Virus record (IMG/VR): IMGVR_UViG_3300045902_000133
Direction: 5' to 3' (one strand)
Length of the DNA stretch: 20,000 bases
Source: an uncultured virus (IMG/VR IMGVR_UViG_3300045902_000133)
Taxonomy: Duplodnaviria; Heunggongvirae; Uroviricota; Caudoviricetes
Made by a program: the position numbers and the translations under genes. Numbering within the stretch: the stretch's first letter is position 1; every line of letters begins with the position of its first letter. The notes beneath the pieces are model-generated. The model had not been told where the DNA came from. It worked only from the letters and a program-made list of their open reading frames with translations, and made no database searches. Of this stretch, positions 3,931-17,915 are shown piece by piece.

Positions 3931-3936
3931 TATTGT

Positions 3937-4695
3937 ATGACCAACACGATCAAGCTTCTCACGACGGGCAACCCCAAGGTTGCCAAGGGCCAGTCTCAGG
4001 GTTACCTGACTAACATTCTCCACCTGGCCCCGAGCCGTATGTCGGGATACAATACGTGCCCGATGGCGACGAAGGGTTGCGCCGCTGCGTGCCTCAATAC
4101 GGCGGGGCGTGGCGGACTGTTCGCTGGTCACGCGACGGGCGTTCTGTCAGGTGCCGACCTGGTACAGGCCATTATGGACGGTCGGATCACGAATAAGATT
4201 CAACTTGCCCGCATCGCCCGCACCCGATTTTTCTTCGAGAATCGTGCGGCGTTTATGGCGCAACTGGTGAAGGAAGTCAAGGCGGCGATCAAGCGTGCCG
4301 CGAAGTATAACCTGACTCCCGTGTTTCGTCTGAACGGCACGAGCGACATTCGTTGGGAAACGGTGAAGGTTGACGGTTTCGACAACATTATGGCGATGTT
4401 TCCGAATGTGCAGTTTTACGATTATACGAAAATCGCCAACCGTCGCGATCTGCCCGCTAACTACCACCTGACGTTCTCGCTGGCCGAGAGCAATCTTGCC
4501 GACGCCGAGCGGGCGCTCGCCAACGGTATGAACGTTGCTGCGGTGTTCCGCACGGTGCCCAAGGTGTTCCTTAGTGTGCCCGTGATCGACGGCGACGCAA
4601 CGGACCTGCGGTTCCTGGACCCGAAGGGTGTCATTGTCGGTCTGAAGGCGAAGGGCAAGGCGAAAAAGGACGATAGCGGTTTCGTTCAGAACTAA
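3937..4695 (+). CDS. gp88-like phage protein with Cys cluster (possible Fe-S enzyme)
   Basis: CPMATKGCAAACL, FRLNGTSDIRWE, QFYDYTK, NYHLTFS and VIDGDATDLRFLDP motifs typical of the GP88 family. Confidence 0.8.
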   Translation: MTNTIKLLTTGNPKVAKGQSQGYLTNILHLAPSRMSGYNTCPMATKGCAAACLNTAGRGGLFAGHATGVLSGADLVQAIMDGRITNKIQLARIARTRFFFENRAAFMAQLVKEVKAAIKRAAKYNLTPVFRLNGTSDIRWETVKVDGFDNIMAMFPNVQFYDYTKIANRRDLPANYHLTFSLAESNLADAERALANGMNVAAVFRTVPKVFLSVPVIDGDATDLRFLDPKGVIVGLKAKGKAKKDDSGFVQN

Positions 4696-4708
4696 ACAAG
4701 GGGCCACC

Positions 4709-5008
4709 ATGAATAACTTTCGTGTGAAGGTTGGAAGTAGCAGGAGCGTTGCCGTTCCCCCGCGTGATGCGGTGCGCCTCGGCAACGATGTCGTGTTGGA
4801 TATGGCTAACTGTCTCATCGACAATATCGAGCGAGATCGCAACAATCTCGTGCGCGAACTCAGTGACCCCGATGATGTTCGGCAGTACTTCGTGTGCTCT
4901 GGTGATGTGATGGTCAAAGCGCTCGTGAGTCGCGGCGACAACGATTCGGATTTGCAAATTGAATTGTATATTTGCCAAATTGAGCGCTATGCGCGTTTCG
5001 CAATCTAA
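4709..5008 (+). CDS. hypothetical protein (99 aa)
   Basis: ATG after AAGGG; operon packing. Confidence 0.65.
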   Translation: MNNFRVKVGSSRSVAVPPRDAVRLGNDVVLDMANCLIDNIERDRNNLVRELSDPDDVRQYFVCSGDVMVKALVSRGDNDSDLQIELYICQIERYARFAI

Positions 5009-5041
5009 TCAACCCAACCCCACTCAACAGGAGAAAACCAT

Positions 5042-5311
5042 ATGTTCAAGCGTGCTCAGGTTCTTCGCGTCACCCGTGCCGTTTCTACCGTTAGCGGCGA
5101 ACTGGTTCCCGCTGGTACTCGCGTTGTGATTCTCAAGCAGGAGGAAAACGGATCGTGGCGCTGCAAGGTGCAGGATGCGTCGCTTGAGACGTTGCGAGGC
5201 GCACGAGTCGTGGTCGGTGCCTCTCGTCTTGAGCAGACGTTCCGTGGTCGCCCGAAGGGTAGCACCAAGGCGGCGTCACAGCCCCAGGCCCCGCAGCCGC
5301 AGGAATCGTAA
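5042..5311 (+). CDS. hypothetical protein with AT-hook-like RGRPKGS
   Basis: ATG after AGGAG; RGRP motif near the C-terminus. Confidence 0.7.
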   Translation: MFKRAQVLRVTRAVSTVSGELVPAGTRVVILKQEENGSWRCKVQDASLETLRGARVVVGASRLEQTFRGRPKGSTKAASQPQAPQPQES

Positions 5312-5326
5312 TTGTAAATCGGCAAA

Positions 5327-5439
5327 ATCGGCCCCACTAGATTTTCTAGTGGGGTCGAGGCGGTGTGTAACGACCGTGTAACAGACGGTTTTGACCCCTT
5401 CCATTCTGTCGAGAATGGGGGTATGTTCATACCATACGA
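5327..5439 (+). repeat. ~113-bp regulatory cassette copy 1 (hairpin + TGTAAC box + promoter) upstream of rIIA
   Basis: Hairpin 5328-5358; TGTAAC at 5366 and 5377; TTCCAT 5399-5404, 17 nt, TATGTT 5422-5427; near-identical to 7629-7741. Confidence 0.9.
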
Positions 5440-5467
5440 AACGAACCCAACCCGAAACGGATTCGAC

Positions 5468-7618
5468 ATGCAGATTATCACCGAAAAGCGAAATGCCACC
5501 GTGGCTGGCATGAAGGCGCAGCGCGAGTTTACCGTCAAGGTCGGTGCGCACATTATGTCCGTGCTCAGCGGCCTTTACAAGAACCCCGTCGATGCTATGG
5601 TTCGTGAATACACCACGAACATGTACGATGCGTGGCTCGCACTCAAGCGCAAGAACCCGAACGCAACCTATACGCCGTGCGAACTTCACCTGCCCACGGC
5701 GTTGTCGCCGTTCCTTGTGTTCAAGGATTACGGCGTCGGCATGAGCTTCGAGACTGTTTGGGAAGTGTATTCCCAGTATGGTAACTCCACGAAGAACGAC
5801 AACAACGACGAAGTCGGTGGCTTCGGCCTCGGCAGCAAGACGGCGTTCTGCTACAACAACGGTCAGCAGTGGACGATTGAAAGCCGCTACAATGGCGAGC
5901 TGATGACGTTCATGGCGTTTGTTGGCGAAGACGGCATTCCGAACATCACGCACGTAACGACCGTGCCGACGAGGGAAGCGAACGGCGTCACGATTCGCAT
6001 TCCGATCCGTCGTGAGCACGTGCAGGACGTTCACGTGGCAGCCCGTAAGTATGTGCCATACTTCCCGATGGACATCGTTGTGCTCAATGCCGATGAGCCG
6101 ATCACGAAGCCGACGTATATCATTTCCGGCAACGGATATGGTATCGATATCAGCGGATCGCATGACTGGCGACGGTGGGGGCGCACCCGTATCATTATGG
6201 GCAATGTGCCCTACGATGTTGACGTACAGCAGTGTGATCTCAGCGGATGGAATCTGCTACAGAACAACGTTGATCTGTATGTGCCGATTGGCACCGTGGA
6301 CATTGTGCCGTCACGTGATGACCTGAAGTATACGGATCGCACGATTGCCTCCGTGAAGGCCGCGTTCGACGCAATGGTGCGTGATCTCGGCGCGGTAGTG
6401 TCTCGCACGATTGATAACGCGCCGACGGAGTGGGCAGCGCACGCGCAGTTTCAGAATATGAACACGCTGCGAGGGCTTCGTGATGTTGTGAAGTCGGTCT
6501 GGTATCGTGGTAAAGAGATTGATACGACGCGCGGCGTCGTGCGCACGGCCGAAGAACTTCTGGCGCTCGACGATACGGCGGAGATCAGTTGCTACGGTGT
6601 CAGCAGCACGGTTCACGGAACGCCAGAAGAGCAGTCCGGCGCAACGATGCGACTGGCTCCGAACCAGCATACGTACCTGATGATTGATGACCTGACGAAG
6701 GGTGCCGCCCGCGTCGCAAAGGGATACTGCTACACGCACCTTGTGAATCGCACCCCGCGAGCGGGGCGGACGCTCAAGTATGGGCATACCATCGGTCACG
6801 TTGTTCTTGTGAAGACGAAGTTGACGAAGCAGCAGCTCAGTGATTTCTTCGGCGGGTTCCCTGTGAACGACATTCTGTTGGCTTCGCAGGTGAGCGGCAA
6901 GGTGAAGCTGCCTGCTGGTCAGAAGGGTAACGACGCACTCTATCGTTTCGACGGTGGTAAGACATGGGGTGCTCGTGTGAACGTGCCGACTGGTGGACCG
7001 TTCTACTACCTCGAGCTGCATCAGGATGTCCACAGCAAGCGTTGGGTGCCTGCATCGTTCGACGCTTCGGACGTTCGTGAACTGCTCACCATTGCCCGTG
7101 ATCTCAAGATTGAAGTCAAGCAGTTGTATGGTATCAAGCACAACGAAGTATCAACGTTTGACGCTTCGGAGTGGAAGCCGCTCATTCCGACGCTGAAGGA
7201 CGCCGCGCAGAAGTTGATTGATGCCGACCCGGCCGCTGCCGTGCGGTTCCAGCGTGAGATCACGCGGCCAATGGTGATGATGCGCAAGATTATCGACGCG
7301 GTTGGCATCCTCGCCGATTTCGCGGATTTCCACGCCGAACTCGCCCAGGTCAACAAGGTGAAGATGAACGAGAACCTTTTGATCGCACAGAAGATTTCTT
7401 CATCTTCGCGTCGTCTGGGCCTCAACGTGGAATGGCCGACCGTTGATAACAACATCGTGCCGTCATTGCAGACGATGTTGGACAAGATCATTGCCAAGTA
7501 TCCGATGATCGGCGTGATGATCGGCATTGCACCTGCGTCAGGTTTCGGCTACGGTGGAACGCAAAACCCGTTTTACCAGTATAAGGATCAGATTACCGAT
7601 TACATCACTAATCGGTAA
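5468..7618 (+). CDS. rIIA: RIIA-like protein (N-terminal GHKL ATPase domain)
   Basis: LSGLYKNP, VREYTTNMYDA, DYGVGMS, GGFGLGSKT, MGNVPY and PSRDDL motifs; lies upstream of rIIB. Start moved to ATG 5468 because the 5363 start lies inside the promoter cassette. Confidence 0.9.
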   Translation: MQIITEKRNATVAGMKAQREFTVKVGAHIMSVLSGLYKNPVDAMVREYTTNMYDAWLALKRKNPNATYTPCELHLPTALSPFLVFKDYGVGMSFETVWEVYSQYGNSTKNDNNDEVGGFGLGSKTAFCYNNGQQWTIESRYNGELMTFMAFVGEDGIPNITHVTTVPTREANGVTIRIPIRREHVQDVHVAARKYVPYFPMDIVVLNADEPITKPTYIISGNGYGIDISGSHDWRRWGRTRIIMGNVPYDVDVQQCDLSGWNLLQNNVDLYVPIGTVDIVPSRDDLKYTDRTIASVKAAFDAMVRDLGAVVSRTIDNAPTEWAAHAQFQNMNTLRGLRDVVKSVWYRGKEIDTTRGVVRTAEELLALDDTAEISCYGVSSTVHGTPEEQSGATMRLAPNQHTYLMIDDLTKGAARVAKGYCYTHLVNRTPRAGRTLKYGHTIGHVVLVKTKLTKQQLSDFFGGFPVNDILLASQVSGKVKLPAGQKGNDALYRFDGGKTWGARVNVPTGGPFYYLELHQDVHSKRWVPASFDASDVRELLTIARDLKIEVKQLYGIKHNEVSTFDASEWKPLIPTLKDAAQKLIDADPAAAVRFQREITRPMVMMRKIIDAVGILADFADFHAELAQVNKVKMNENLLIAQKISSSSRRLGLNVEWPTVDNNIVPSLQTMLDKIIAKYPMIGVMIGIAPASGFGYGGTQNPFYQYKDQITDYITNR

Positions 7619-7628
7619 ACTGTAAATC

Positions 7629-7741
7629 ATCGGCCCCACTAGATTTTTCGGTGGGGCCGATGGCGGCGTGTAACGACCGTGTAACAGACGGTTTTGACCC
7701 CTTCCATTCTGCCGAGAATGGGGTATGTTCATACTATACGA
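7629..7741 (+). repeat. ~113-bp regulatory cassette copy 2 between rIIA and rIIB
   Basis: Near-identical to 5327-5439; TGTAAC at 7669 and 7680; TTCCAT, 16 nt, TATGTT. Confidence 0.9.
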
Positions 7742-7773
7742 CCAGAAGGCGTCTTTTGATTGGATCAGAGGGC

Positions 7774-7802
7774 TTGACGAAAAAGTTGTTATTGTGTAGA
7801 TT
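7774..7802 (+). promoter_or_regulatory. second sigma70-like promoter for rIIB
   Basis: TTGACG 7774-7779, 17 nt, TAGATT 7797-7802. Confidence 0.65.
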
Positions 7803-7850
7803 TAGAAAGTAACCCAACCCGAACGGAAACCCCAAAAGAGGATACTCAAG

Positions 7851-8960
7851 ATGACTGCAACGAACGCTGTTCCTCCGATGATCGTCACCGACACCGGCAT
7901 TACCATCTTTATTGATGGTCAGGTGTTGGTTGCGCCGAACGATCATCCTAACTTCCAGGCCGTCAAGGATGCCATCGCTGCGTCCGATTTCGACAAGATT
8001 CCGGCACTGCTCGATGTTCGCAGCGCGGTCAACCGTTATGTCGGTTCCGTGAACGCTCCTGGTTTCACGATGATCGGTGACTTCCTCGCGCTGGATGGTA
8101 AGCCGTTCACCTTTGAAGTGACTGAAAAGGTGCTCAACATGATTGCCGAGGGTCAGCCCGCCGAACCGATTTACAACTTCCTGCGCAAGGTTCGCCAGAA
8201 CCCGCGAGTTGCTGCACAGGACGAACTCTTGCTGTTCTGCGTCGCCAACAACTTCATGATCCACGCTGATGGTGATATCATCGCCTACAAGAGCGTGCGT
8301 GGAGACTACAAGGACATTCACTCCGGCACCATCCTCAACACGGTTGGTAGCGTGGTCCAGATGCCGCGTCAGGCGGTTGACGATGATCGCGACCGCACGT
8401 GCTCGACGGGTCTGCATTTCGCCAGTTACGAATATGCGAGCACGTGGGCTGGCACGATTGATGGGGTGAACCTTCGCCTTGTCGTGATGAAGATCAATCC
8501 CGCCGATGTTGTCGCCATCCCGAGCGATTACAACAATCAGAAGGGTCGCACGTGGCGTTACGAGATCATCGCGGAAATCACGGGTCGGGGTGGCCCGCTG
8601 CCGAAGCGTGAGGTGTATACCAACAGCGATCTCGGCGTGACGAACAGCACGGATGTTAGTGAGAGTCGTTGGTCGGAGAGTGAAATCCAGCGCAAGAACG
8701 AAGTGCTCAAGGGTTGGCTCGAACGCCAGTCGGAAGTAGACCGTGAGATTGAGTCGATGCAGTCCGACCTCGATGACCTTTACGACCGCATCGCGAGGAT
8801 CAACGATCTCGGCGGTGATGCGCCGGCGCTCGAGGATGAGGCCAACGACATGGAGAACGAGATCGGAGAACTCGCCGAGGAAAGTGGTCGCCTCGCAGAC
8901 AAGATCGCTCGCATCGAGAATGAGATTCGCGATCTCGGCGGCGTTCCGGTCACGGCGTAA
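7851..8960 (+). CDS. rIIB: RIIB-like protein with acidic coiled-coil C-terminal extension
   Basis: DGDIIAYKSV, MPRQAVDDDRDRTCSTGLH and KINPADVVAIPSDYNNQKGR motifs; GAGGA RBS. Confidence 0.9.
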   Translation: MTATNAVPPMIVTDTGITIFIDGQVLVAPNDHPNFQAVKDAIAASDFDKIPALLDVRSAVNRYVGSVNAPGFTMIGDFLALDGKPFTFEVTEKVLNMIAEGQPAEPIYNFLRKVRQNPRVAAQDELLLFCVANNFMIHADGDIIAYKSVRGDYKDIHSGTILNTVGSVVQMPRQAVDDDRDRTCSTGLHFASYEYASTWAGTIDGVNLRLVVMKINPADVVAIPSDYNNQKGRTWRYEIIAEITGRGGPLPKREVYTNSDLGVTNSTDVSESRWSESEIQRKNEVLKGWLERQSEVDREIESMQSDLDDLYDRIARINDLGGDAPALEDEANDMENEIGELAEESGRLADKIARIENEIRDLGGVPVTA

Positions 8961-8991
8961 TCACCAAGGAGTCCCCAATCGGGTTGGGGCA

Positions 8992-9031
8992 GAAAAAGGG
9001 CCGAGTCCAGAAATGGACTTGACCCTTTTTC
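8992..9031 (+). terminator. intrinsic terminator
   Basis: GAAAAAGGGCCGAGTCCA-GAAA-TGGACTTGACCCTTTTTC. Confidence 0.8.
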
Positions 9032-9045
9032 GTTGGCGGGCGGCA

Positions 9046-9106
9046 TGTAACGGAATTGTAACACCGCAAAAAGGGGCTTGATTGTGTTGGGGGATTGGGG
9101 TATTAT
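9046..9106 (+). promoter_or_regulatory. TGTAAC box + promoter
   Basis: TGTAAC at 9046 and 9057; TTGATT 9078-9083, 17 nt, TATTAT 9101-9106. Confidence 0.85.
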
Positions 9107-9224
9107 TATAGTGTAATGACTGACGAAAACAAAATCGAAATGGTTGACGGGTCGCCTCACAAAGCGTAAAAACCCCCGTCACCTTCCGATTAGACAAAAC
9201 CCAACTCAAAAGAGGAAAACGAAC

Positions 9225-9518
9225 ATGACCGCAAAGGCTGCAAAGACCGTGAAGGCTCCGTCGGCCAAGGCGATGGCTCGCAAGCGCACGGTGCAGGAGC
9301 GTAAGTCGATTACCGCGCAGATCCGCTCGGCCGAGAAGATCGCCCGTTCTTTCGAGAAGGCGCGTGAGACTCTGACTGCCGAGGTGGCGAAGCTCAACGG
9401 CGATATCAAGACTCAGCTCGAGCAGGTTCTCGCACAGCTCGGCGTGGCCGCAACCATCGTCGATGCCGAGGTCGAGTCGCAGGCGGTTGCACTGGCTCGG
9501 ACGTTCGTGAAGCGATAA
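9225..9518 (+). CDS. basic Ala/Lys-rich coiled-coil protein (97 aa)
   Basis: ATG at 9225 after AGAGGA; K/A-rich N-terminus. Confidence 0.8.
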   Translation: MTAKAAKTVKAPSAKAMARKRTVQERKSITAQIRSAEKIARSFEKARETLTAEVAKLNGDIKTQLEQVLAQLGVAATIVDAEVESQAVALARTFVKR

Positions 9519-9529
9519 TCGCGTTCGTA

Positions 9530-9633
9530 ATCAACTGTCGCCACAGACGGATGGATAATCCGAAGTAGCCTAAAGGCACGGTCGTTAGACCGCCGGGGAG
9601 TGTGACGGACAGGAACCCATCCCTTCAGTTGAT
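9530..9633 (+). ncRNA. candidate structured RNA (multi-hairpin junction), family unknown
   Basis: Closed by ATCAACTG/CAGTTGAT; internal hairpins CGGAT/ATCCG, GCC/GGC and CGGTC/GACCG. Confidence 0.45.
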
Positions 9634-9638
9634 ACACC

Positions 9639-9669
9639 TCCAGGTCGTGTCGCGGTGGCACGACCTGGA
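9639..9669 (+). terminator. 13-bp GC-rich hairpin, possible terminator
   Basis: TCCAGGTCGTGTC-GCGGT-GGCACGACCTGGA; weak U-tract. Confidence 0.5.
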
Positions 9670-9684
9670 ATCGTTTGCCCGACA

Positions 9685-9701
9685 TGTAACATCCGTGTAA
9701 C
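9685..9701 (+). promoter_or_regulatory. TGTAAC-N5-TGTAAC box without an obvious promoter at the usual spacing
   Basis: Exact box; no -35/-10 pair 15 nt downstream. Confidence 0.65.
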
Positions 9702-9924
9702 AACCTTCGTTGACCCATAAGCACCTGCTCAGCGACCTGAATGATCTTTCGCCGCCGAGCGATGATCCGTGGAACGAATAACTGGGGTTGCGCCCGCAGC
9801 CCCCTCCACAAACACCAGTCAAAATGGTCACTCGCATTAACTTGCTGTCGGATCTGCCATATCAGGAAGCTGAAGATATGCCGATCTGCTGCTCGCCGGC
9901 GTCCGAAACATATTGGAGCATATA

Positions 9925-10323
9925 GTGCGCAAGACTTTCCTTGTCGTGTTCGGCGTGGATCTCGCCACCAAGCAACTCGCAACTTGGTGGTTGCCATCAT
10001 TCGTAGTATACAACACCGAGATAAGCAAGGTCGGTTTGAGCAACATCGGACATATCGTGTTGACCGTAATGCTCTGCTGGTTTTTTTGGGAGCTTGGTCA
10101 GCGACAGGACATTGCCAATATCAAGCCCTATGCTGCTACAGCGGTCGCTGGATCATTAGCTAATTTGGTGAGCTATGTATCAGATCCACCGGGTGTGCTT
10201 GATTTCATTCCCGTGCCTGGCATTGGCATTGCCAATTTCGCCGATTTTGCAATATGGGTCGGCACAATCGGTGTGGTCTATGTTGTTGCAAGACAAGCAC
10301 TTACGCTACACGCCGGCGTGTAA
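9925..10323 (+). CDS. lspA: divergent lipoprotein signal peptidase II (LspA-like)
   Basis: GTG after GGAG; DLATK (DxxTK), AGSLANL (GxxGN-like), GVLDF and ANFAD carry both catalytic-position Asp residues; four hydrophobic segments. Confidence 0.75.
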   Translation: MRKTFLVVFGVDLATKQLATWWLPSFVVYNTEISKVGLSNIGHIVLTVMLCWFFWELGQRQDIANIKPYAATAVAGSLANLVSYVSDPPGVLDFIPVPGIGIANFADFAIWVGTIGVVYVVARQALTLHAGV

Positions 10324-10379
10324 CGACCGTGTAACATGGGATTTGGGGGCTTGTGGTTTAGTCGCCTCTGGTGTATTAT
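10319..10379 (+). promoter_or_regulatory. TGTAAC box + promoter at the start of the RNA cluster
   Basis: TGTAAC at 10319 (supplies the lspA stop codon) and 10330; TTGTGG 10351-10356, 17 nt, TATTAT 10374-10379. Confidence 0.8.
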
Positions 10380-10464
10380 TTATTTAGAGTAAATGATGAA
10401 CGGTGGTCACCAACCGAAATGGTGACGGACTCTTGACCAGGTATCAAGAGCGGCACCCGTGGTC

Positions 10465-10520
10465 CGTAACAAAAGTGTTACAAAAGTAAGCTTGACCTGA
10501 GACACCGAATGGGTTATCTT
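10465..10520 (+). promoter_or_regulatory. second promoter of the RNA cluster with variant box
   Basis: CGTAAC-N5-TGTTAC 10465-10481; TTGACC 10492-10497, 17 nt, TATCTT 10515-10520. Confidence 0.7.
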
Positions 10521-10605
10521 ACTAACGTTGATTGACAAACGAAACGAGTGTCCTGCCACCGACCGTCGGGACTAATGACGGCTCTCGCGTCCGTCGCTCG
10601 TTTAT

Positions 10606-10677
10606 GGCGCTATCGTCTAGTGGCTAGGACATGAGACTTTCAATCTCAGAACACGGGTTCGACTCCCGTTAGCGTCA
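10606..10677 (+). tRNA. tRNA-Glu(UUC), CCA not encoded
   Basis: Acceptor GGCGCTA/TAGCGTC; anticodon arm TGAGA-CT-TTC-AA-TCTCA; T arm ACGGG-TTCGACT-CCCGT. Confidence 0.95.
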
Positions 10678-10682
10678 CCTAT

Positions 10683-10746
10683 GGTCGATGGGTATGGATG
10701 GGTCATTCGTGGGTCATCCGGACGAGTTCGAGTCTCGTTACGACCA
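10683..10746 (+). ncRNA. tRNA-like RNA lacking a D arm
   Basis: Canonical T arm ACGAG-TTCGAGT-CTCGT; acceptor-like GGTCG/CGACC; single GGATG/CATCC stem in place of the D and anticodon arms. Confidence 0.6.
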
Positions 10747-10910
10747 ATTCGATAAAGAGCTCGGCATCTCTGAAAACTGCCTATAAGAGAATGGCGCTGA
10801 TACTCTTTAATAAACTGCGCAAGTGGCTACCAGTGTGAACGGTGTTGGCGCACTAAGCACGCTCGGTAGAAGCGACCGATTTTGTATAGCGCCAAATATA
10901 CATTATCGGA

Positions 10911-10979
10911 TATCACATGGTCTAACGGATAGGACGGCCCCTGGGGGGGCAGATATGGGTTCGAGTCCCATTGTGATTA
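10911..10979 (+). ncRNA. tRNA-like RNA (Glu/Gln-type body) with 4-nt anticodon loop
   Basis: ATCACA/TGTGAT acceptor; D arm GTC-TAACGGATAG-GAC; GCCCC-TGGG-GGGGC; T arm ATGGG-TTCGAGT-CCCAT. Confidence 0.75.
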
Positions 10980-10983
10980 TAGC

Positions 10984-11037
10984 GGACATAGGAATTACCC
11001 GTCGGATGATCCGACGCAGCCGATCTCGGCGATGTTT
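10984..11037 (+). ncRNA. GGAATTACCC three-way-junction motif, copy A
   Basis: GGACAT/ATGTTT closing stem; GGAATTACCC; GTCGGA/TCCGAC; GCA; GCCG/CGGC. Confidence 0.6.
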
Positions 11038-11051
11038 GACAATCGTTGTGT

Positions 11052-11207
11052 GTGATGCCTGGCCGCCCCAAGGAGGGGTCTGTGATCAGAAACCTGCCAG
11101 TTTCTGGTCACACAGGTTGAGCAGTGGCAGCTGCAATTAGCCATTAACATAAGGCAAAAATCCGGGAAACATCTGAATAGGCGAAACCCGGACATCACCA
11201 CTATTCA
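11052..11207 (+). ncRNA. candidate ~155-nt RNA with kissing loops and pseudoknot
   Basis: GTGATG/CATCAC closure; loops CTGCCA (11094-11099) and TGGCAG (11125-11130) are complementary; TGAATAG (11174-11180) pairs with CTATTCA (11201-11207). Confidence 0.6.
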
Positions 11208-11247
11208 TCCTTAGATCAGAGGTCGAGAAATTCTCGGGGTGATTTAC

Positions 11248-11320
11248 GCTTCGATAGCTCAATTGGCAGAGCAGCTGACTTTTAATCAGTAGGTTACAGG
11301 TTCGACTCCTGTTCGAAGCA
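11248..11320 (+). tRNA. tRNA-Lys(UUU), CCA not encoded
   Basis: Acceptor GCTTCGA/TCGAAGC; D arm GCTC/GAGC; GCTGA-CT-TTT-AA-TCAGT; T arm ACAGG-TTCGACT-CCTGT. Confidence 0.95.
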
Positions 11321-11374
11321 CTAAAGGCTGGAATTACCCGCTGGGTTCATACAGTGCAGCCGAATGGCGGTTAG
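11321..11374 (+). ncRNA. GGAATTACCC three-way-junction motif, copy B
   Basis: GGAATTACCC 11330-11339; GCTG/CAGT; GCA; GCC/GGC; same layout as copy A with different stem sequences. Confidence 0.6.
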
Positions 11375-11464
11375 ATAATCTCCTGTCCTTGCATAAAACT
11401 AACAACGCCAGTAAAGGTCGCTCGATGACAATACTCTAGCGGCCCGTTTGTCATTGGACCGGTA

Positions 11465-11525
11465 TGTAACATCCGTGTAACAACAGCCTAAACCCCTTGT
11501 ATTCAAACTGGTTTGGGTGTATTAT
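11465..11525 (+). promoter_or_regulatory. TGTAAC box + promoter
   Basis: TGTAAC at 11465 and 11476; TTGTAT 11497-11502, 17 nt, TATTAT 11520-11525. Confidence 0.85.
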
Positions 11526-11531
11526 TCCACT

Positions 11532-11786
11532 GTGATAAAGATGATGACATCAAAGCTCATCGTCGTTTCAAGCAACTTCGCCGTGAGGGCAAGTAACATG
11601 GCAGACCATACATTCTGGCGTTCGTGGAACATCATCGGCACCGATCTCAACGGTCGCAAGTGTCCGATTCGGCAGGTCACCATTCCTGCGAGTTACAACA
11701 CCGTGGAAGCGGCATTGCGCTACATCCAGCGCACCGTAAGTGCCACGGTATCTGAAATCGAGGCTGTCCATGATTACCAGCGCTAA
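11532..11786 (+). CDS. hypothetical protein
   Basis: In-frame GTG 6 nt after the -10 box; alternative ATG at 11598. Confidence 0.6.
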   Translation: MIKMMTSKLIVVSSNFAVRASNMADHTFWRSWNIIGTDLNGRKCPIRQVTIPASYNTVEAALRYIQRTVSATVSEIEAVHDYQR

Positions 11787-12075
11787 CCTTGAGACGTGTC
11801 AGTTTGTTTCGGCCAATGCGATCTATCGTGATGTGATCGAGCACTTTGGAATGCTCGGTGAAAGTGCCGACGATTTTCTGGACAGTATCACGGATCAAGC
11901 GCCGTGGACTTGGGGCGACACGAACCGTGTAATGGTGGGCAACAACGAGTTTGTGGAGTTTCTCATCAATCGGCTTGAGGATCTGGATTACAACGATTCC
12001 GAGATTGACGTTTACTGCGCGAACCTGCTCGATTTTCTGGTAACGCAGTGCGCCTACGTGGACATCGCTAACTAA
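11770..12075 (+). CDS. hypothetical protein, TWGDxNR family (paralog of 2755..3009)
   Basis: ATG at 11770 after GAGG; WTWGDTNR motif and C-terminal AYVDIAN. Confidence 0.8.
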   Translation: MITSANLETCQFVSANAIYRDVIEHFGMLGESADDFLDSITDQAPWTWGDTNRVMVGNNEFVEFLINRLEDLDYNDSEIDVYCANLLDFLVTQCAYVDIAN

Positions 12076-12088
12076 CTACGGAGCAAAT

Positions 12089-12466
12089 ATGGGCAAGCTG
12101 ACTCCCAAGTGGTTTGAGTTCCGCCAGAACAACCCTGGCGGTAGGCTCGTGTTCAACGATTCCGTTGGCAACTACGTCTACATTCAGGCGTTCACCGCCG
12201 CCGAAGCAAATAGCAAGGCCGAAGACATCGGCGTGTATTTCGACGGCGTGGCCAAGGGCTATGACTGCGAATGTTGTGGCGACCGCTGGTGTTCCGTGTG
12301 GGACCGCTGCGAAGGTTCGGTAGATATGCCCAAGCAGTATGTTTGGAATCGTGGTCAGGTGGACTACGAGCTGTGCGATACCGCTCCTCGTAATAGCGAG
12401 TATGCGGTGTTCTACCATATCGACGGACGCCGTGAATATGGCGTGTCGATGGAGTCGGAAAACTAA
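12089..12466 (+). CDS. conserved phage protein with QNNxGG and DCxCCGDRW motifs
   Basis: GGAG RBS; motifs recognised from phage hypothetical proteins. Confidence 0.8.
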   Translation: MGKLTPKWFEFRQNNPGGRLVFNDSVGNYVYIQAFTAAEANSKAEDIGVYFDGVAKGYDCECCGDRWCSVWDRCEGSVDMPKQYVWNRGQVDYELCDTAPRNSEYAVFYHIDGRREYGVSMESEN

Positions 12467-12478
12467 TCCCCTCAAATA

Positions 12479-12507
12479 GAAAAAGGGCGAGAAATCGCTC
12501 TTTTTTC
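12479..12507 (+). terminator. intrinsic terminator
   Basis: GAAAAAGGGCGA-GAAA-TCGCTCTTTTTTC. Confidence 0.85.
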
Positions 12508-12520
12508 ATACCGCCCGGCC

Positions 12521-12580
12521 TGTAACGAGAATGTAACACGGAGCGTAAGGGCTTGATCGAACCCCCAGACGGTTTATATT
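12521..12580 (+). promoter_or_regulatory. TGTAAC box + promoter
   Basis: TGTAAC at 12521 and 12532; TTGATC 12553-12558, 16 nt, TATATT 12575-12580. Confidence 0.8.
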
Positions 12581-12609
12581 ACACTCATAACCTCAACACG
12601 GAGCGGCTT

Positions 12610-12756
12610 GTGGAATACGATCTCATGGATTATTCGTTTTATCTGGAAGCCGAACGCGACGCGATGCTCAGCGATGCCGTGACCGAGGAATATCCCGCCG
12701 AAGAGCAGAGCGATGTGTTTGATCAGGAAATCAAGCACATGCTTGAAATCATCTAA
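12610..12756 (+). CDS. small acidic protein (48 aa)
   Basis: GTG at 12610 after GGAG. Confidence 0.65.
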   Translation: MEYDLMDYSFYLEAERDAMLSDAVTEEYPAEEQSDVFDQEIKHMLEII

Positions 12757-12770
12757 CCCAAGAGGATACC

Positions 12771-13016
12771 ATGCTGGATTTCAACGATCTCGACAATCGT
12801 TCGCAGGAACTTGAGGACGAAATCGATGAGTCTGAGTTTGAGGAACTGACCGAGGAAGAGCTCGAGGAACTGTTTGACGACGATTTCGACGACGAAGATG
12901 ACTTCGACGACGAATATGACTTCGACGACGATATGGATGGTGACCACGCCACGGGTCTGCGTGATGCTGGCTTCGGCACTGACGAGGACTATGGTTATTA
13001 CGGCGAATGGGACTAA
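12771..13016 (+). CDS. extremely acidic protein (81 aa)
   Basis: AGAGGA RBS; 40 of 81 residues are Asp/Glu by manual count. Confidence 0.85.
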   Translation: MLDFNDLDNRSQELEDEIDESEFEELTEEELEELFDDDFDDEDDFDDEYDFDDDMDGDHATGLRDAGFGTDEDYGYYGEWD

Positions 13017-13036
13017 CGGTTCGTGTAACCGAATAA

Positions 13037-13132
13037 ATCGGCACTAGATTTTTCGGTGGGGCCGAACCGGTTTGTAACGACCGTGTAACAGACCGCATTG
13101 CCCTTGACAACCGCGCCCTTGCGGGTTATTAT
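13037..13132 (+). promoter_or_regulatory. partial third copy of the rIIA-flanking cassette joined to a different promoter
   Basis: ATCGGC-ACTAGATTTTTCGGTGGGGCCGA (3-nt deletion relative to 7629); TGTAAC at 13073 and 13084; TTGACA 13104-13109, 17 nt, TATTAT 13127-13132. Confidence 0.85.
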
Positions 13133-13165
13133 TATTATGTCACCTTTCCCCTGAACGGAGCACAC

Positions 13166-13480
13166 ATGAAAAATCGGGTCGAGCACATGGTGTACGACAA
13201 CGGGTACGAGTCATGGTCCACGTACGACGATCTCGGGAACAAGACCCATTTCCGAGACTCTAACGGATACGAGGAGTGGTCCACGTACGACGAACGCGGA
13301 AACGAAACCCATTTCCGAACCTCCACCGGGTACGAGGAATGGACCACGTACGACGATCTCGGGAACAAGACCCATTTCCGAGACTCTAACGGATACGAGG
13401 AGTGGTTCACGTATGACGAACGTGGAAACAGGATCCCCGTCCGAGACTCTGACGGGTACGAGGAATGGACCACGAACTAG
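13166..13480 (+). CDS. YD-repeat-like protein (four 21-aa repeats)
   Basis: GGAG RBS; GYEEWxTYDxxGNxTHFRDSN units; 63-bp DNA repeat. Confidence 0.8.
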   Translation: MKNRVEHMVYDNGYESWSTYDDLGNKTHFRDSNGYEEWSTYDERGNETHFRTSTGYEEWTTYDDLGNKTHFRDSNGYEEWFTYDERGNRIPVRDSDGYEEWTTN

Positions 13481-13513
13481 GTGTGACCCCCTGACACCGC
13501 GCCCACACCGGTG

Positions 13514-13573
13514 TGTAACGAAAGTGTAACGACACGTTGTTCCCCTTGTATTCCGTCCGATGTTGACTATATT
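13514..13573 (+). promoter_or_regulatory. TGTAAC box + promoter
   Basis: TGTAAC at 13514 and 13525; TTGTAT 13546-13551, 16 nt, TATATT 13568-13573. Confidence 0.85.
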
Positions 13574-13579
13574 ACTCAC

Positions 13580-13801
13580 ATGACTGAAACGACTCCGCTT
13601 TTCCTGTTTGCTGGATCGACCTACTATCCCAAAGGTGGGATGTTGGATTTCATCGGCACCTTTGAGTCCGTCGAGGATGCCGAGAACGTGGTTCGATCCC
13701 CGGAACCCGACGAAGATGGTTATACCCCGACATACGATTGGTGGCACATTGCCACCGTCGTAGACGGTAAGCTCACCATCGTCAAGATTCACCGAGGCTG
13801 A
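13580..13801 (+). CDS. phage protein with YYPxGGxxDF and DWWHI motifs
   Basis: ATG 6 nt after the -10 box with no RBS. Confidence 0.8.
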   Translation: MTETTPLFLFAGSTYYPKGGMLDFIGTFESVEDAENVVRSPEPDEDGYTPTYDWWHIATVVDGKLTIVKIHRG

Positions 13802-13802
13802 T

Positions 13803-14000
13803 ATGCGCAATCGCATCGCTGTAGGCGATACGGTCGCCTTTCCTGTGGATGGCATTTATGTGACTGGGCGCGTCACGCGCCTTTTGCCCGCTGGCTGGCT
13901 CGTCAAGACGGTGGAAGGCCGTTTGAGTCGGCAGGTGGCAGTATTTCCGATGCGCACACCCGAGGAAGCGGCCGCACTGATCCATTGGATCTCCGCATAA
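13803..14000 (+). CDS. hypothetical protein (65 aa)
   Basis: GAGG RBS; 1 nt after the upstream stop. Confidence 0.7.
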   Translation: MRNRIAVGDTVAFPVDGIYVTGRVTRLLPAGWLVKTVEGRLSRQVAVFPMRTPEEAAALIHWISA

Positions 14001-14041
14001 CGACCGCCTCACAATCAGCCATAACCCCAACGAATACTGCT

Positions 14042-14215
14042 GTGCCTCGCTTGAATCTGCAACATCTTGATTTCGACGAAGTAGACGAACCCATTTTCGA
14101 ACCCGTGCGGCGTTCCACCGAACCCGTGAACGGTAAGCATGACCTTCAACGCCGTGCTGAAAACGGAATCAACCGATTTCGCAAGGCTCGTCTTTTGAAG
14201 GAGCAAACCCGCTAA
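14042..14215 (+). CDS. hypothetical protein (57 aa), start uncertain
   Basis: GTG at 14042 in the 13985..14215 frame; fills the operon gap. Confidence 0.5.
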   Translation: MPRLNLQHLDFDEVDEPIFEPVRRSTEPVNGKHDLQRRAENGINRFRKARLLKEQTR

Positions 14216-14246
14216 TGGAAAACTTCACGAACGGGAACAAGTGATC

Positions 14247-14639
14247 ATGAGCAACGCGATGATTCAGAAAACGGCAATGTCGGACCTTCTCAACACCTTC
14301 GCCTGGACAATCGGACGCGATACGATGAATCGTTTGATTGCTGACAGACTCGACTGTGCAGCGAACATGGAAAACGCGCACGTCAAGATCGCAATGGGTC
14401 GCAAGTTTGCCAAGGTCATCGTGGGGTCCAGTGTTCGGTATTTCGTCCGACTGACCGACGGCGTGATCTTCGCCTCGGCGAGTCACAATGCTCCGAACTT
14501 CAATCGTAGTTTTGGCACGCTGTGGACGATTGACGATTTCAACTGGGGCGGATACGAAGCGAGAGCGAAGTTTGGCACTCCCTGGAAGATGGTTCCCGTC
14601 AAGGGCGGCAGTGGATACCTGACGGCGGTGTCGGTGTGA
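14247..14639 (+). CDS. conserved phage protein (GRKFAKV...FV...DGxIFxxASxxAP family)
   Basis: Motif pattern seen in widespread phage hypothetical proteins. Confidence 0.75.
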   Translation: MSNAMIQKTAMSDLLNTFAWTIGRDTMNRLIADRLDCAANMENAHVKIAMGRKFAKVIVGSSVRYFVRLTDGVIFASASHNAPNFNRSFGTLWTIDDFNWGGYEARAKFGTPWKMVPVKGGSGYLTAVSV

Positions 14640-14794
14640 AGCGTGTCACCGAATACAAAAATTTCACGATTTATGTGAAACTGCCGGAAGGCGAGTATTA
14701 TGTGGCGGGGCATGCACAAATTTATCGGTCGCTTGCCTCAGCCAAGCGCGGAATTAATCGTTTAATCAAAAAAGATAAAATCGGCGGTAAGTAA
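14636..14794 (+). CDS. small basic protein (52 aa), not in ORF track
   Basis: GTGA overlap with the upstream stop; MKRVTEYKNFTIYVKLPEGEYYVAGHAQIYRSLASAKRGINRLIKKDKIGGK. Confidence 0.6.
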   Translation: MKRVTEYKNFTIYVKLPEGEYYVAGHAQIYRSLASAKRGINRLIKKDKIGGK

Positions 14795-14850
14795 CAAAAA
14801 TCTAACAACGCCGATTGGGTCTTGATTTCGCCCCCATTTTCGCGTAGATT
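14790..14850 (+). promoter_or_regulatory. degenerate box + promoter
   Basis: AGTAAC-N5-TCTAAC 14790-14806; 15 nt; TTGATT 14822-14827, 17 nt, TAGATT 14845-14850. Confidence 0.7.
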
Positions 14851-14897
14851 ACCCCGTGTAAAGAGCATGACGCGCAACCCTCTAAGGCAAAGGCAAC

Positions 14898-15119
14898 ATG
14901 GCACCCCGCATCAAGATGTCCGATGAAACCGAAACCGCGCTCCGTCGCGTGTGGGCCGAGGTGTCACCCGATGCCATCCCTTGTTCGTGGGACGAAGCGG
15001 CGGAACTGACCTTGGATCGTGTCGGTGGTGACGCAGGCCGTGAGATTGATAAGCTCATTGCCCGCCACGGGTATAATGCCGTATGCAAAGTTACGGTCGC
15101 CGCCCTCGGAGGTCCATAA
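14898..15119 (+). CDS. hypothetical protein (73 aa)
   Basis: ATG after AAGG, downstream of a promoter. Confidence 0.7.
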   Translation: MAPRIKMSDETETALRRVWAEVSPDAIPCSWDEAAELTLDRVGGDAGREIDKLIARHGYNAVCKVTVAALGGP

Positions 15120-15234
15120 CTAGGGTCCATATTACACAATTGTTACAGACCGCCTCACGATGTCCTCTTTTGAGGACACCGGGGATCAACTAAAGGGTGT
15201 AGTCGGTCAAGGGTGGAACGACCGGTGTAAAAGG

Positions 15235-15480
15235 TTAGTCGTCGTAAGCGTCGTAGTCTCCAAACTCTGCCGCAGCGATGGCTCGCTTCGCCGCCGTAGC
15301 GGGGCTAACGTCGTCTTCATACCAGTCGCGATACGGGCAATCCGGAAGGTCATCGACGCCAAGACCGAACGAGCGAACGAGCAAGAAGTTCACCTTGCCC
15401 TTCCATTGGGTGTAGGTTTGCATATCAATCATGGAAACTCGCCCTTCCACTGGGTGGGTGTAGGTTTGCGTATCAGTCAT
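15235..15480 (-). CDS. phage protein with DDLPDxPYRDWYED motif
   Basis: ATG at 15480, 6 nt after the -10 box. Confidence 0.8.
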   Translation of the reverse strand: MTDTQTYTHPVEGRVSMIDMQTYTQWKGKVNFLLVRSFGLGVDDLPDCPYRDWYEDDVSPATAAKRAIAAAEFGDYDAYDD

Positions 15481-15486
15481 GGAAGA

Positions 15487-15547
15487 ATAATAGCTCGAAA
15501 GTGTTTGAAACACAACCCCTCGTTATCGTTGTTACATTCTCGTTACA
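15487..15547 (-). promoter_or_regulatory. TGTAAC box + promoter (minus strand)
   Basis: TGTAAC-GAGAA-TGTAAC 15547-15531; 15 nt; TTGTGT, 17 nt, TATTAT ending at 15487. Confidence 0.85.
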
Positions 15548-15558
15548 AACCGGTTCGA

Positions 15559-16356
15559 TCAAGTCAGAAACGGAGCGGCATATCTGGCGACATATTCGCG
15601 ATTGAACAGATCGGGATTATTCCGAATGAAATCATAATATGGACGATAGGTATCATCCAACGATGCAAACGGCGTCAAGGCCCGAGTGGCTGGATCTCGG
15701 GATTGCTGCTTGTGATTTTCAAAATTGTCGGGATTATCAATATCGCCGCTTTGTTTGTGACCGGCGAGCTCGGCGGGGTCACTCCAATTGAAACAATACG
15801 ACGGAACAAAATTCGGGTTGTATTCGTCAAGTTGTCGTTCATCACGGAGTTGAGTATACCAACTCAATCCTTCATATCCAGTCAAGTCCGACCGAAAGCC
15901 AATTTCACGAATGCGAGACATACGGACAATAACCGAGGCTTCCAACGTGTTCTGAACCAATATGATTCCTTGTTGACTGGCGAAGAAACTATTTGCGGGT
16001 TTCCACGCATCTTTTCCTATTTCTGTGATGCCTTCTACGGCTTGTTGTAAATGCCACGGTAAGTAGATATCATCATCATCGGCCAACATGAAAAACTCCC
16101 CGGTCGCGTGTGTCACCGCGTCACGGCAAATATCGCCGCGATTTGTATAGGGAAGACCAGTCTGATAATTTCGGTCATTGTTGATCACGATGATTTGTTC
16201 GTCGGGGACGGCCAACGATATCGGATATTCCTGATCGGTATTGAAAATGATGAGCTCGGCGTGTCGATAGGTCTGAGCGTGGAATTGTGCAATGATACGT
16301 TCAACGCAGGTCGCCCGACGAAATGTTGTGCAGACGAAACTCACTTTATCCTTCAT
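15559..16356 (-). CDS. glycosyltransferase, GT-A fold (family 2-like)
   Basis: VSFVCTTFRR, QTY..ELIIF and ATGEFFMLADDDDIYLPWHL (DxD). Confidence 0.85.
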   Translation of the reverse strand: MKDKVSFVCTTFRRATCVERIIAQFHAQTYRHAELIIFNTDQEYPISLAVPDEQIIVINNDRNYQTGLPYTNRGDICRDAVTHATGEFFMLADDDDIYLPWHLQQAVEGITEIGKDAWKPANSFFASQQGIILVQNTLEASVIVRMSRIREIGFRSDLTGYEGLSWYTQLRDERQLDEYNPNFVPSYCFNWSDPAELAGHKQSGDIDNPDNFENHKQQSRDPATRALTPFASLDDTYRPYYDFIRNNPDLFNREYVARYAAPFLT

Positions 16357-16747
16357 ACACACCATCCTTGAGTTTATTCCATACTTCAGGACTCCAACTA
16401 TACAATGACCAGTGCCGAGCATATTGTGATTCAAATTTGCCGTAATGAAAATACTCGTAGTTATGATTTCGGAGTTGTTCAGCAACCGGCGCCTGTGGTA
16501 TTTCGTTCGGTAATCCCAGAAATTTTTTGATGGTCATGCCAAACCACGACGGACCATACCACCCACAGGAACTGTTCATTGATTGAACACAAAACTCTAA
16601 AATCGGCGACGCACGCTCTGCACCGAACACACCGTTCGGAATGGTGAAATACGAGTCATACTTGGTGAAAAATTCTGATGGAATGACATCATGTATAGAT
16701 TCTGGCTTATTCAAATATAATTGTTCAATTACTTGATTTTGTGTCAT
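16346..16747 (-). CDS. possible C-terminal half of a GT32-like glycosyltransferase (may be a fragment)
   Basis: PNGVFGAERASPIL...YGP...YARH resembles the GT32 C-terminal region; no N-terminal GGIYxDxD seen. Confidence 0.45.
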   Translation of the reverse strand: MTQNQVIEQLYLNKPESIHDVIPSEFFTKYDSYFTIPNGVFGAERASPILEFCVQSMNSSCGWYGPSWFGMTIKKFLGLPNEIPQAPVAEQLRNHNYEYFHYGKFESQYARHWSLYSWSPEVWNKLKDGVYEG

Positions 16748-16793
16748 ATGATTCAATAACCTATTTTTTTGATTGTTGCGGCTCCCCATACAC

Positions 16794-17915
16794 TTATTGG
16801 GTGGTTGTTGGAACCCCAATATAGGAATCTGATATCACGATATCGTCAAACCACTCGGATCGGGTATCGGCGGGATCGTTGAACCAGCTCGCAAACCACA
16901 CATCCCGCAGCGAGAAGTTCGACGGCATCGGTGTGGCCAAGTTCCCACTGTAATTGATGATCTGCACCCCGTCGATCCACATTCCGGCCTTTTGCTTGCC
17001 GGGTTCCGAGTAGTCCAACATTACCTCAATGTATCGCCAGCGATCCCTGAAGGTGTTCGGATGGTTCTGGGTGTAGATGGCTTGCGATGTCTCGAAGCCA
17101 GTCTGCCAGATGTTCCATGGGGCTATTGCGAAATCGTCGCCGTAGAACAGGAAGCCGTTCCACTGGATATTGAAGGTGCCGACGGCCCTGCCGCTCTGGC
17201 CATTGATGTCGGCTCGGATCCGGACGGTCTTCTTGATGCCGCTGTTGTCGGCGTTGGCCGACTGCTTGTAACGGAATCGTGCGTGCAACTTGAGACGAGT
17301 CCCGGTCACCGTGTGGGAGATGGCCTGGTCACGATCACCACCTCGTGTCCAATCGAACTGCACGCATCGTCCACCATTAGCAGTGGCATCGGTCACGATG
17401 CGGGGAGAACCCCAGCGACCCATGCCCGCCCAGCCGCCATCATCGAACCCATGACTGAACAGCACGCCGCTTGGCGGCGCTGCGGTTGTTGTTGGTGCAG
17501 CCGTTGTCGTTGTTGGAGCACGAGTCGTAGTCGTTGGAGCACGAGTCGTGGTTGTCGGTGCTAGCGTCGTAGTCGTCGGCGTAGCCGTGGTTGTGGTTGT
17601 TGGTGCAACCGTAGTCGTGGTTGGAGCTAGCGTCGTCGTTGTTGGAGCTCGAGTTGTCGTAGTTGGAGCTAGCGTCGTCGTTGTTGGAGCTCGAGTTGTG
17701 GTTGTCGGTGCTAGCGTAGTTGTAGTCGTCGGTGCAGCCGTGGTTGTGGTTGGAGCACGAGTCGTAGTCGTCGGCGTAGCCGTAGTTGTGGTTGTTGGTG
17801 CAACTGTAGTCGTGGTTGGAGCTAGCGTCGTGGTTGTTGGATCAGCCGTGGTTGTGGTCGTATGTGGACCCCGTTGCCGGCCGAGTAGTCGAAGCCATAG
17901 ATGATAGAAGGACAT
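16794..17915 (-). CDS. Thr/Pro-rich mucin-like protein with C-terminal beta-sandwich (lectin/polysaccharide-lyase-like) domain
   Basis: About 18 TTTTxAP units followed by LFSHGFDDG...WRYIEV...MWIDG...WFDDIVISDSYIG. Confidence 0.75.
   Translation of the reverse strand: MSFYHLWLRLLGRQRGPHTTTTTADPTTTTLAPTTTTVAPTTTTTATPTTTTRAPTTTTAAPTTTTTLAPTTTTRAPTTTTLAPTTTTRAPTTTTLAPTTTTVAPTTTTTATPTTTTLAPTTTTRAPTTTTRAPTTTTAAPTTTAAPPSGVLFSHGFDDGGWAGMGRWGSPRIVTDATANGGRCVQFDWTRGGDRDQAISHTVTGTRLKLHARFRYKQSANADNSGIKKTVRIRADINGQSGRAVGTFNIQWNGFLFYGDDFAIAPWNIWQTGFETSQAIYTQNHPNTFRDRWRYIEVMLDYSEPGKQKAGMWIDGVQIINYSGNLATPMPSNFSLRDVWFASWFNDPADTRSEWFDDIVISDSYIGVPTTTQ
17475..17861 (-). repeat. imperfect tandem repeat (mostly 21/24 bp) encoding TTTT(T)xAP
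   Basis: Visible in both DNA and translation; synonymous positions vary. Confidence 0.9.

Follow-up and report, generated by a model that had tools for sequence, protein, structure and literature searches.

What does a phage carry in about 1.07 kb of DNA that holds tRNA genes and no credible open reading frame (ORF)? The question is raised by positions 10386..11460 of a 20,000-nucleotide (nt) stretch, hereafter the window, from an uncultured virus of the Caudoviricetes. This window comes from the minus strand of a 105,488-bp linear IMG/VR record (IMGVR_UViG_3300045902_000133, here G001; CheckV completeness 48%), and the island maps to G001 75647-76721. The original prediction, made from the letters alone, read nearly the whole span as an array of discrete structured RNAs interleaved with tRNAs. 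We found a simpler inventory. The island is rather probably a satellite tRNA operon that consists of two decoding tRNAs, two non-decoding tRNA-shaped RNAs, one probable structured RNA, and spacer or trailer sequences. Coordinates below are those of the window unless another sequence is named, and all features of the island lie on its plus strand.

The two ordinary tRNA genes that had been predicted were confirmed by ARAGORN as tRNA-Glu(UUC) at 10606..10679 and tRNA-Lys(UUU) at 11248..11321. They scored 65.7 bits (10606-10677) and 75.7 bits (11248-11320), respectively, with the Rfam tRNA model, and in the ARAGORN output both have an anticodon stem and a 7-nt loop with a 3-nt anticodon. The fold z-scores of these true tRNAs were -2.0 and -2.7, calculated, like those of the single modules below, from 200 dinucleotide shuffles. 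Both genes duplicate specificities found in the main RNA-gene cluster of the same phage, which lies ~27 kb from the island. The island tRNA-Glu matches a tRNA-Glu(UUC) of the main cluster over 64 nt with 86% identity, and the anticodon loops of the two paralogues are identical.

Two further units of the island are shaped like tRNAs but depart from them at the anticodon arm. The unit at 10911..10979 has a normal D-arm, T-arm, and acceptor stem (with a U1:U72 mismatch), and its short anticodon arm reads GCCCC-UGGG-GGGGC. These 14 nt form either 5 base pairs (bp) capped by UGGG or, according to ARAGORN, a 6-nt loop with a 2-nt anticodon; the program reported the gene as 'tRNA-???' with the two-base anticodon gg. 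In Rfam, the unit reached 45.3 bits for tRNA (gathering score 29), and only 3 nt were aligned to six loop positions of the model. The second unit, at 10680..10748, has no D-arm. In its predicted fold (z -1.72), the acceptor stem is followed by a linker of 8 nt, then by an arm of 9 bp with a UUCG cap and by a T-arm with GTTCGAGTC, and the unit gave no match to the Rfam tRNA family (RF00005) even at E<=10. Its T-arm, at 10722-10739, is the fourth of the four copies in the island of a repeat family, D1. Both units had been proposed before, as an 'anticodon-less' and a 'D-armless' tRNA-like RNA, and both descriptions proved apt, the first by the two-base anticodon and the Rfam score and the second by the fourth T-arm copy and the predicted fold. 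Neither unit has the 5-bp anticodon stem and 7-nt loop with a 3-nt anticodon, and because tetraloop-capped arms stand where the anticodon loop should be, both are predicted to be unable to decode.

A natural variant strain bears on whether these units are maintained. It was found in runs X8 and X10 when Logan contigs of four runs were compared with window 9000-13000. Substitutions were compared over 9917-11208, and the 25 differences listed for the contig covering 9917-10674 equal the 25 reported for it. The two strains differ by 45 events in 1292 nt (3.5%), which are scattered very unevenly: the rate is 4.4% in the upstream coding region, 6.2% in 10749-10844, and 3.0% in 11041-11208. None of the 69 positions is changed in the D-armless unit, and none of the 69 in the short-armed unit, where no indel is listed in the G run either. 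There is one event in the 74 nt of tRNA-Glu and none in the 62 nt (10324-10385) compared of the promoter cassette described below. The three largest event-free gaps, of 177, 153, and 143 nt, cover the quiet blocks, namely the cassette, both tRNA-like units, and 10845-10895 (0 of 51 positions changed). Under uniform scatter, the probability of a third gap of at least 143 nt is 0.00017. Judged from this comparison of sequences, the two tRNA-like units appear to be under constraint between the strains, and their probable role is to punctuate processing or to mimic tRNAs.

Between the short-armed unit and tRNA-Lys lies a stretch without a conserved ORF, 11041..11247, which is the only part of the span to stand out in folding (z -4.15). 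In the predicted structure, an outer helix (11048-11057/11190-11200) encloses a core with three hairpins (11062-11155), including one of 13 bp at 11081-11112; further hairpins are found at 11161-11190 and, on the 3' side, at 11211-11246. The loop CTGCCA (11094-11099) of the 13-bp hairpin is fully complementary, over 6 nt, to TGGCAG (11125-11130), a segment that extends across the loop of the hairpin that follows. The variant has four substitutions in this stretch, and two of them, 11063 C>U and 11154 G>A, affect partners in the minimum free energy (MFE) structure and turn a C-G pair into a U-A pair (the chance of any such partner pair is 0.011), and no change falls within the three core hairpins. 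On the strength of these models (the z-score again from 200 shuffles), 11041-11247 is probably an independent, structured small RNA. Of the modules that had been proposed, the kissing-loop RNA located here is the best candidate, with its fold, its loop-loop complementarity, and one possible compensatory change.

These data must be weighed against the view that the island is a decaying tRNA array, that is, a duplicated piece of the cluster in which two of the four tRNA genes are now pseudogenes and the inter-tRNA sequence, including 11041-11247, is functionless. The paralogy of tRNA-Glu with a main-cluster gene fits this view, as does an 11-nt tandem duplication (D14) in the D-armless unit, which is typical of slippage damage. 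Two trailers described below, motifs A and B, show that [tRNA + trailer] units were duplicated, and most of the proposed modules fold no better than shuffles. However, simple decay would hardly leave both tRNA-like units unchanged next to spacers that vary by 6-15%, and the two units have neat tetraloop-capped arms rather than scattered damage. It would not predict the combination of strong folding, partner change, and loop complementarity in 11041-11247 either. We regard decay as unlikely.

The satellite operon that we favour begins with a phage promoter cassette at 10316..10385, which consists of TGTAAC, 5 nt, TGTAACA, 13 nt, a -35-like CTTGTG, and a -10-like TATTAT (10374-10379). This cassette is one of five near-identical aligned copies in the window, the others starting at 1760, 9040, 11462, and 12518, with the general form TGTAAC, 5 nt, TGTAACA, 13 nt, CTTG(T/A), and then TATTAT. 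The paired TGTAAC boxes look like a regulator binding site common to a set of small, probably early, transcription units. Two promoters had been proposed for the island. The one at 10351-10379 is part of this repeated cassette and can be retained, whereas the one at 10492-10520 is a 9-of-12 sigma-70 match in a region where such matches are no commoner than in shuffles (3 vs 3.3). This second site lies in the 5' leader (10386..10541; fold z -1.15), which also contains twin hairpins at ~10405-10452; the leader has four substitutions in the variant, none of them within the two hairpin stems. A 10-codon mini-ORF (10394-10426) directly after the promoter was judged incidental because the similar TGATGA/TGACGA that follows the -10 box in other cassettes is not always a start codon.

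The aligned copies of the cassette span 1760-1860, 9040-9140, 10316-10416, 11462-11562, and 12518-12618. Contigs of the variant strain (runs X8 and X10) lack 448 nt at 9081-9530 and 365 nt at 12089-12455, the latter being exchanged for 16 other letters. The ORFs 9144-9518 and 12089-12466 (phrog_4867) are thereby gone from that strain; thus, whole promoter-plus-gene cassettes come and go between strains.

As had been predicted, there is no credible ORF in the span. None of the six ORFs of at least 40 amino acids that overlap it has a Pfam match, and the 105-amino-acid ORF has no match in PHROGs. The variant strain carries indels of -2, -1, and +1 inside this 105-amino-acid ORF, and the whole series within the span is -2, -1, +1, +1, -3, +1, and +1. 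As this indel pattern is not in multiples of three and none of the six ORFs has a Pfam match, we take the span to be non-coding; a hidden gene was rejected for the lack of Pfam and PHROGs matches and for the frame-breaking indels.

A transcript of the following kind would explain these features. One of the stereotyped promoters of the phage (two TGTAAC boxes, CTTGTG, and TATTAT) would start an RNA-only transcript at ~10386 that holds the four tRNA-shaped units. These units would be the places where the host enzymes for tRNA processing cut it, RNase P at the 5' ends and RNase Z or exonucleases at the 3' ends, a step suggested by the tRNA-like shapes. Two of the products would be ordinary decoding tRNAs, Glu-UUC and Lys-UUU, and two would retain the acceptor/T-arm half, which is what these enzymes recognise, and be unable to decode. 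The piece of ~200 nt upstream of tRNA-Lys (11041-11247) would be released in the same way and be comparable to RNAC and RNAD of phage T4.

Several observations weigh against this proposal. Co-transcription and processing of the pieces are both inferred, and a terminator-like hairpin at 10863-10887 could divide the locus into two transcripts. The D-armless unit, with just five clean pairs in its acceptor stem and without a match to the Rfam tRNA model, may not be a processing substrate. In tRNA-Glu, the variant has G2>C (window 10607) opposite U71, which turns a G.U pair into a mismatch, and no change at 10676 is listed. With one comparator at ~3.5% divergence, the invariance of 69-nt blocks is weak evidence when each is taken singly, and phage mosaicism can also yield event-free blocks. 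Finally, the helix that contains the 11063/11154 pair (11062-64/11153-55) has 3 bp and a base-pairing probability of 0.42, and it is absent from the centroid structure and from the MFE structure of the variant; a competing pairing of 11056-60 with 11152-56 would be broken or weakened by 11154 G>A.

What, then, are the other proposed modules? All of the closing helices named in the original prediction exist in the reference sequence, but the fold z-scores of single modules were just -0.8 to -2.0. When the 20 kb was scanned in 120-nt windows, the mean z was -1.09 in the region and -0.47 outside (Mann-Whitney p 0.044). The three-way module at 10542..10603, closed by AAACGAGTG/CGCTCGTTT and directly 5' of tRNA-Glu (z -1.99), has two changes in the variant, one that turns U.G into C-G at 10554 and keeps the pair and one in a loop at 10559, and these are uninformative. 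The TAAAGAG/CTCTTTA module at 10753..10809 (z -1.97) has four substitutions, an indel of +1, and one of -3. Its C-G at 10762 becomes A.G, its U-A at 10767 becomes C.A, and the 3-nt deletion lies in the closing helix. With two predicted pairs and 3 nt of the closing helix lost, it is probably unconstrained spacer. The TTGGCGC/GCGCCAA module at 10845..10895 (z -1.93) contains the terminator-like hairpin (10863-10879), followed by TTTTGTAT; five terminator-like matches were found against 2.6 in shuffles, one of them at 10863-10887.

Motif A (10991..11040) consists of GGAATTACCCG, a hairpin, and GCAGCCGA, and forms the trailer of the short-armed unit. Its paralogue, motif B (11330..11385; z +0.06), is the trailer of tRNA-Lys and consists of GGAATTACCCG and then GCAGCCGA. 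GGAATTACCCG is an exact 11-mer repeat at 10991 and 11330, and the two trailers align over ~45 nt. Motif A with its flank (10980-11040) is the most variable stretch of all, with 9 variant events in 61 nt (14.8%), which does not support it as a discrete functional module. Its hairpin, read by hand, is remodelled in the variant and still foldable; in the flank, two predicted pairs are lost and two are kept. In motif B, one T is inserted behind 11364. The element at 11410..11462 that had been called a pseudoknot is a hairpin (ATGACAA/TTGTCAT inside GGTC/GACC; z -0.76) without a terminator-like T run, and the 3' part as a whole (11322-11462) is indistinguishable from shuffles (z +0.09). Neither motif B nor this hairpin thus folds better than shuffles. 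In the reading that we favour, 10753-10809, the trailers of motifs A and B, and 11322-11462 would be spacer or duplicated trailer without conserved structure.

It follows that only a part of the original prediction stands, namely its features and helices, the RNA-only character of the locus, and the promoter at its head. That the ~1.07 kb comprises about 12 discrete functional RNAs (decoys, ribozymes, or sponges) freed by tRNA punctuation is, in our opinion, quite improbable. The real helices, the lack of an ORF and of Rfam matches for the modules, and the promoter-headed layout all agree with it. Against this, the variant breaks pairs in 10753-10809 and in the flank of motif A without compensation, motif B and the 3' part fold as shuffles do, the region-wide fold signal is marginal, and the modules have no paralogues in the other 104 kb of the record. 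Folding energy in comparison with shuffled controls, which the prediction had named as a test that could refute it, is not beyond chance for most modules, with 11041-11247 as the exception.

We then asked whether the parts belong to known families. In Rfam 15, no family besides tRNA reached its gathering score in the window. A scan of 10200-11700 at E<=10 added chance-level matches of 12-21 bits and an antisense-of-tRNA match, and the sole match to mascRNA-menRNA was the true tRNA-Glu (E 0.33). The modules thus have no credible match in Rfam. HDV-like 'theta' ribozymes occur in phage tRNA arrays. Like them and like GOLLD (RF02032) and ROOL, the candidate 11041-11247 would be a structured non-coding RNA within a phage tRNA array; it differs from GOLLD in being much smaller (~160-200 nt) and in having no Rfam match. 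The short-armed unit resembles canonical tRNA (RF00005) in its D-arm, T-arm, and acceptor stem, and the D-armless unit shares the T-arm consensus and an acceptor stem with canonical tRNA and with phage tRNA pseudogenes; the lack of a 7-nt anticodon loop in either unit and the invariance of both between strains set them apart. The idea of tRNA-like punctuation is shared with mascRNA of MALAT1 and with mitochondrial tRNA punctuation, in which a non-decoding tRNA fold guides RNase P and RNase Z to their cleavage sites on a long transcript, although these are eukaryotic or organellar systems.

The closest parallel is found in phage T4, in which RNAC and RNAD, both small RNAs, are reportedly released by tRNA processing. 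The available part of one report describes the two as transcripts of T4's tRNA region and of unknown role (PMC3014915). The likeness, as far as the accessible text of the sources goes, is that of non-tRNA small RNAs among phage tRNA genes without an ORF (PMC3014915, PMC9697503), and it extends to the type of locus and to the proposed mode of release, by tRNA processing. Here, 11041-11247 provides the candidate gene for a non-coding, non-tRNA RNA among phage tRNA genes. The island differs in lying apart from the main cluster, with two tRNAs of its own, and in having two non-decoding tRNA-shaped units, and the likeness drawn here is one of locus kind. By this analogy, the kind of locus would not be an undescribed one: it can be classed as a satellite tRNA operon of the RNAC/RNAD kind.

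This small tRNA island stands apart in a phage whose great wealth of RNA genes is evident from its main cluster, with a GOLLD RNA, a transfer-messenger RNA (tmRNA), a group I intron, and other unusual tRNA-like genes. This cluster occupies ~2300-19150 on the minus strand of the stretch L005 (G001 40001-60000) and has 45 ARAGORN genes, more than 40 of them for tRNAs, including the tmRNA (tag ANPALALAA) in the total. The GOLLD RNA (L005 7903-8369; 198 bits) overlaps a called tRNA-Ser, and the group I intron is at L005 9806-10007. A second 'tRNA-???' with a two-base anticodon (cc), an encoded CCA end, and an Rfam tRNA score of 30.4 bits is found at L005 9360-9433 (minus strand); therefore, the phage has at least two tRNA genes with a short anticodon loop. 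Two tandem tRNA-like genes at L005 14276-14456 (minus strand) have no ARAGORN call. Each has a 7-bp acceptor stem, a T-arm, the anticodon-type loop CTGATAA, and a long extra region, with only an 8-nt linker at the D-arm position, and they may share the design of the D-armless unit. A tRNA with the anticodon CUA at L005 7207-7279 (minus strand; ARAGORN label 'tRNA-Pyl'; Rfam tRNA 67 bits) is of amber-suppressor type and hints at a possible use of TAG as a sense codon in certain genes of the phage.

Within the window, rIIA (5363-7618) and rIIB (7851-8960) are encoded just upstream of the island (PHROGs). The ORF directly upstream of it (9913-10323, plus strand) matches signal peptidase II (Peptidase_A8, 29 bits vs a cut-off of 25), and a lipoprotein signal peptidase homologue is unusual in a phage. 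Runs with the island sequence are labelled as hot-spring or microbial-mat metagenomes, and none of those listed is on record as RNA. When 50,697 phage records were searched by tblastn with rIIA, all 2,916 matching records fell in the band under 60% identity, and the best identities were below 35% among the 25 records listed.

With a single rIIB query, no relative was found in viral contigs; closer rIIB homologues exist, with identities of 80, 80, 77, 72, 73, 62, and 59%. An alignment of 18 rIIB homologues as the query gave seven loci in metagenome contigs (46-56% identity) and one in viral contigs (51%), and none of the loci of those relatives with 46-56% identity carries the island. When the region was compared by blastn with 12 loci (the seven loci of relatives and five of the six G001 stretches, L006 being excluded), the matches were at tRNA level only. 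Distant blastn of 10300-11600 against the 50,697 phage records gave matches via tRNAs only among the 40 rows listed, all of which were at query 946-1044, in tRNA-Lys. With the LspA-like upstream ORF as the query, two loci were found at 29% identity, both without tRNAs. The kissing-loop pattern had no match in genome contigs or in viral contigs. The pattern GGAATTACCCG...GCAGCCGA had three viral matches, which by eye are all within coding sequence and were taken as chance. The pattern of a short anticodon arm plus a T-loop had no match in genome contigs and one in viral contigs, in L020, an unrelated GC-rich contig of 6.3 kb. An intergenic gap of that contig contains a mini tRNA-like element (2485-2550, plus strand) without an ARAGORN call, in which the identical hairpin of 15 nt, GGCCCCTGGGGGGGC, precedes a T-arm and a matching acceptor-like stem. 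A 217-kb relative with an rIIB 51% identical (L017) has an ORF-poor gap (11103-11780, plus strand) ~3.5 kb downstream of rIIB with a lone tRNA-Gln(UUG). This tRNA, like Lys-UUU and Glu-UUC, belongs to the group with a modified wobble U34.

Why would a phage keep tRNA-shaped RNAs that do not decode? The two anticodon-loop-less RNAs might be dedicated decoys or sponges, either for host defence nucleases that target tRNAs or for other proteins that bind them, expressed alongside replacement tRNA-Lys and tRNA-Glu. According to the available parts of two reports, phage tRNAs have been proposed or shown to counter anticodon nucleases (PMC10264068), and the T5 tRNA-Lys acts against PARIS (PMC11464382). 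The extra copies of tRNA-Lys(UUU) and tRNA-Glu(UUC), carried on top of those of the main cluster, recall the nuclease-resistant phage tRNAs discussed there as counter-defence (PMC11464382, PMC10264068), and with them the hypothesis of anticodon-loop mutations. The mimics keep the acceptor/T half without the loop that such nucleases cut, and neither is changed between the strains. Yet the anticodon loop of tRNA-Glu, being that of its paralogue, carries no evasion-type change. Nucleases that recognise the anticodon stem-loop, such as AriB as presented in the accessible text of PMC11464382, would not obviously bind a loop-less mimic. We consider dedicated decoys very improbable.

A broader counter-defence cassette, in which the replacement tRNAs act together with two mimics that soak up or mislead tRNA-targeting host factors and with a new compact RNA, is improbable too. 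In the model of that compact RNA, to which the same low confidence applies jointly, the core 11062-11155 would form a four-way junction in which two of the hairpin loops make a kissing contact. If this were true, the island would be a phage tRNA-mimic system of a new class; the alternative view sees leftovers of tRNA decay in it.

Phage tRNA clusters are now being re-read as counter-defence loci, and, to our knowledge, T4 RNAC and RNAD have gone 50 years without an assigned function. What is unusual here is how clean the non-decoding parts are, with tetraloops at the anticodon position and no change while the adjacent spacers vary; their neighbours are a candidate kissing-loop RNA and additional genes for tRNA-Lys and tRNA-Glu. 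The leads of worth are the two anticodon-loop-less mimics, both invariant, and the RNA at 11041-11247. If they are not expressed and processed, this would be an ordinary, partly decayed tRNA island; if they are, it would offer a compact test bed for the role of non-decoding tRNA mimics in phage.

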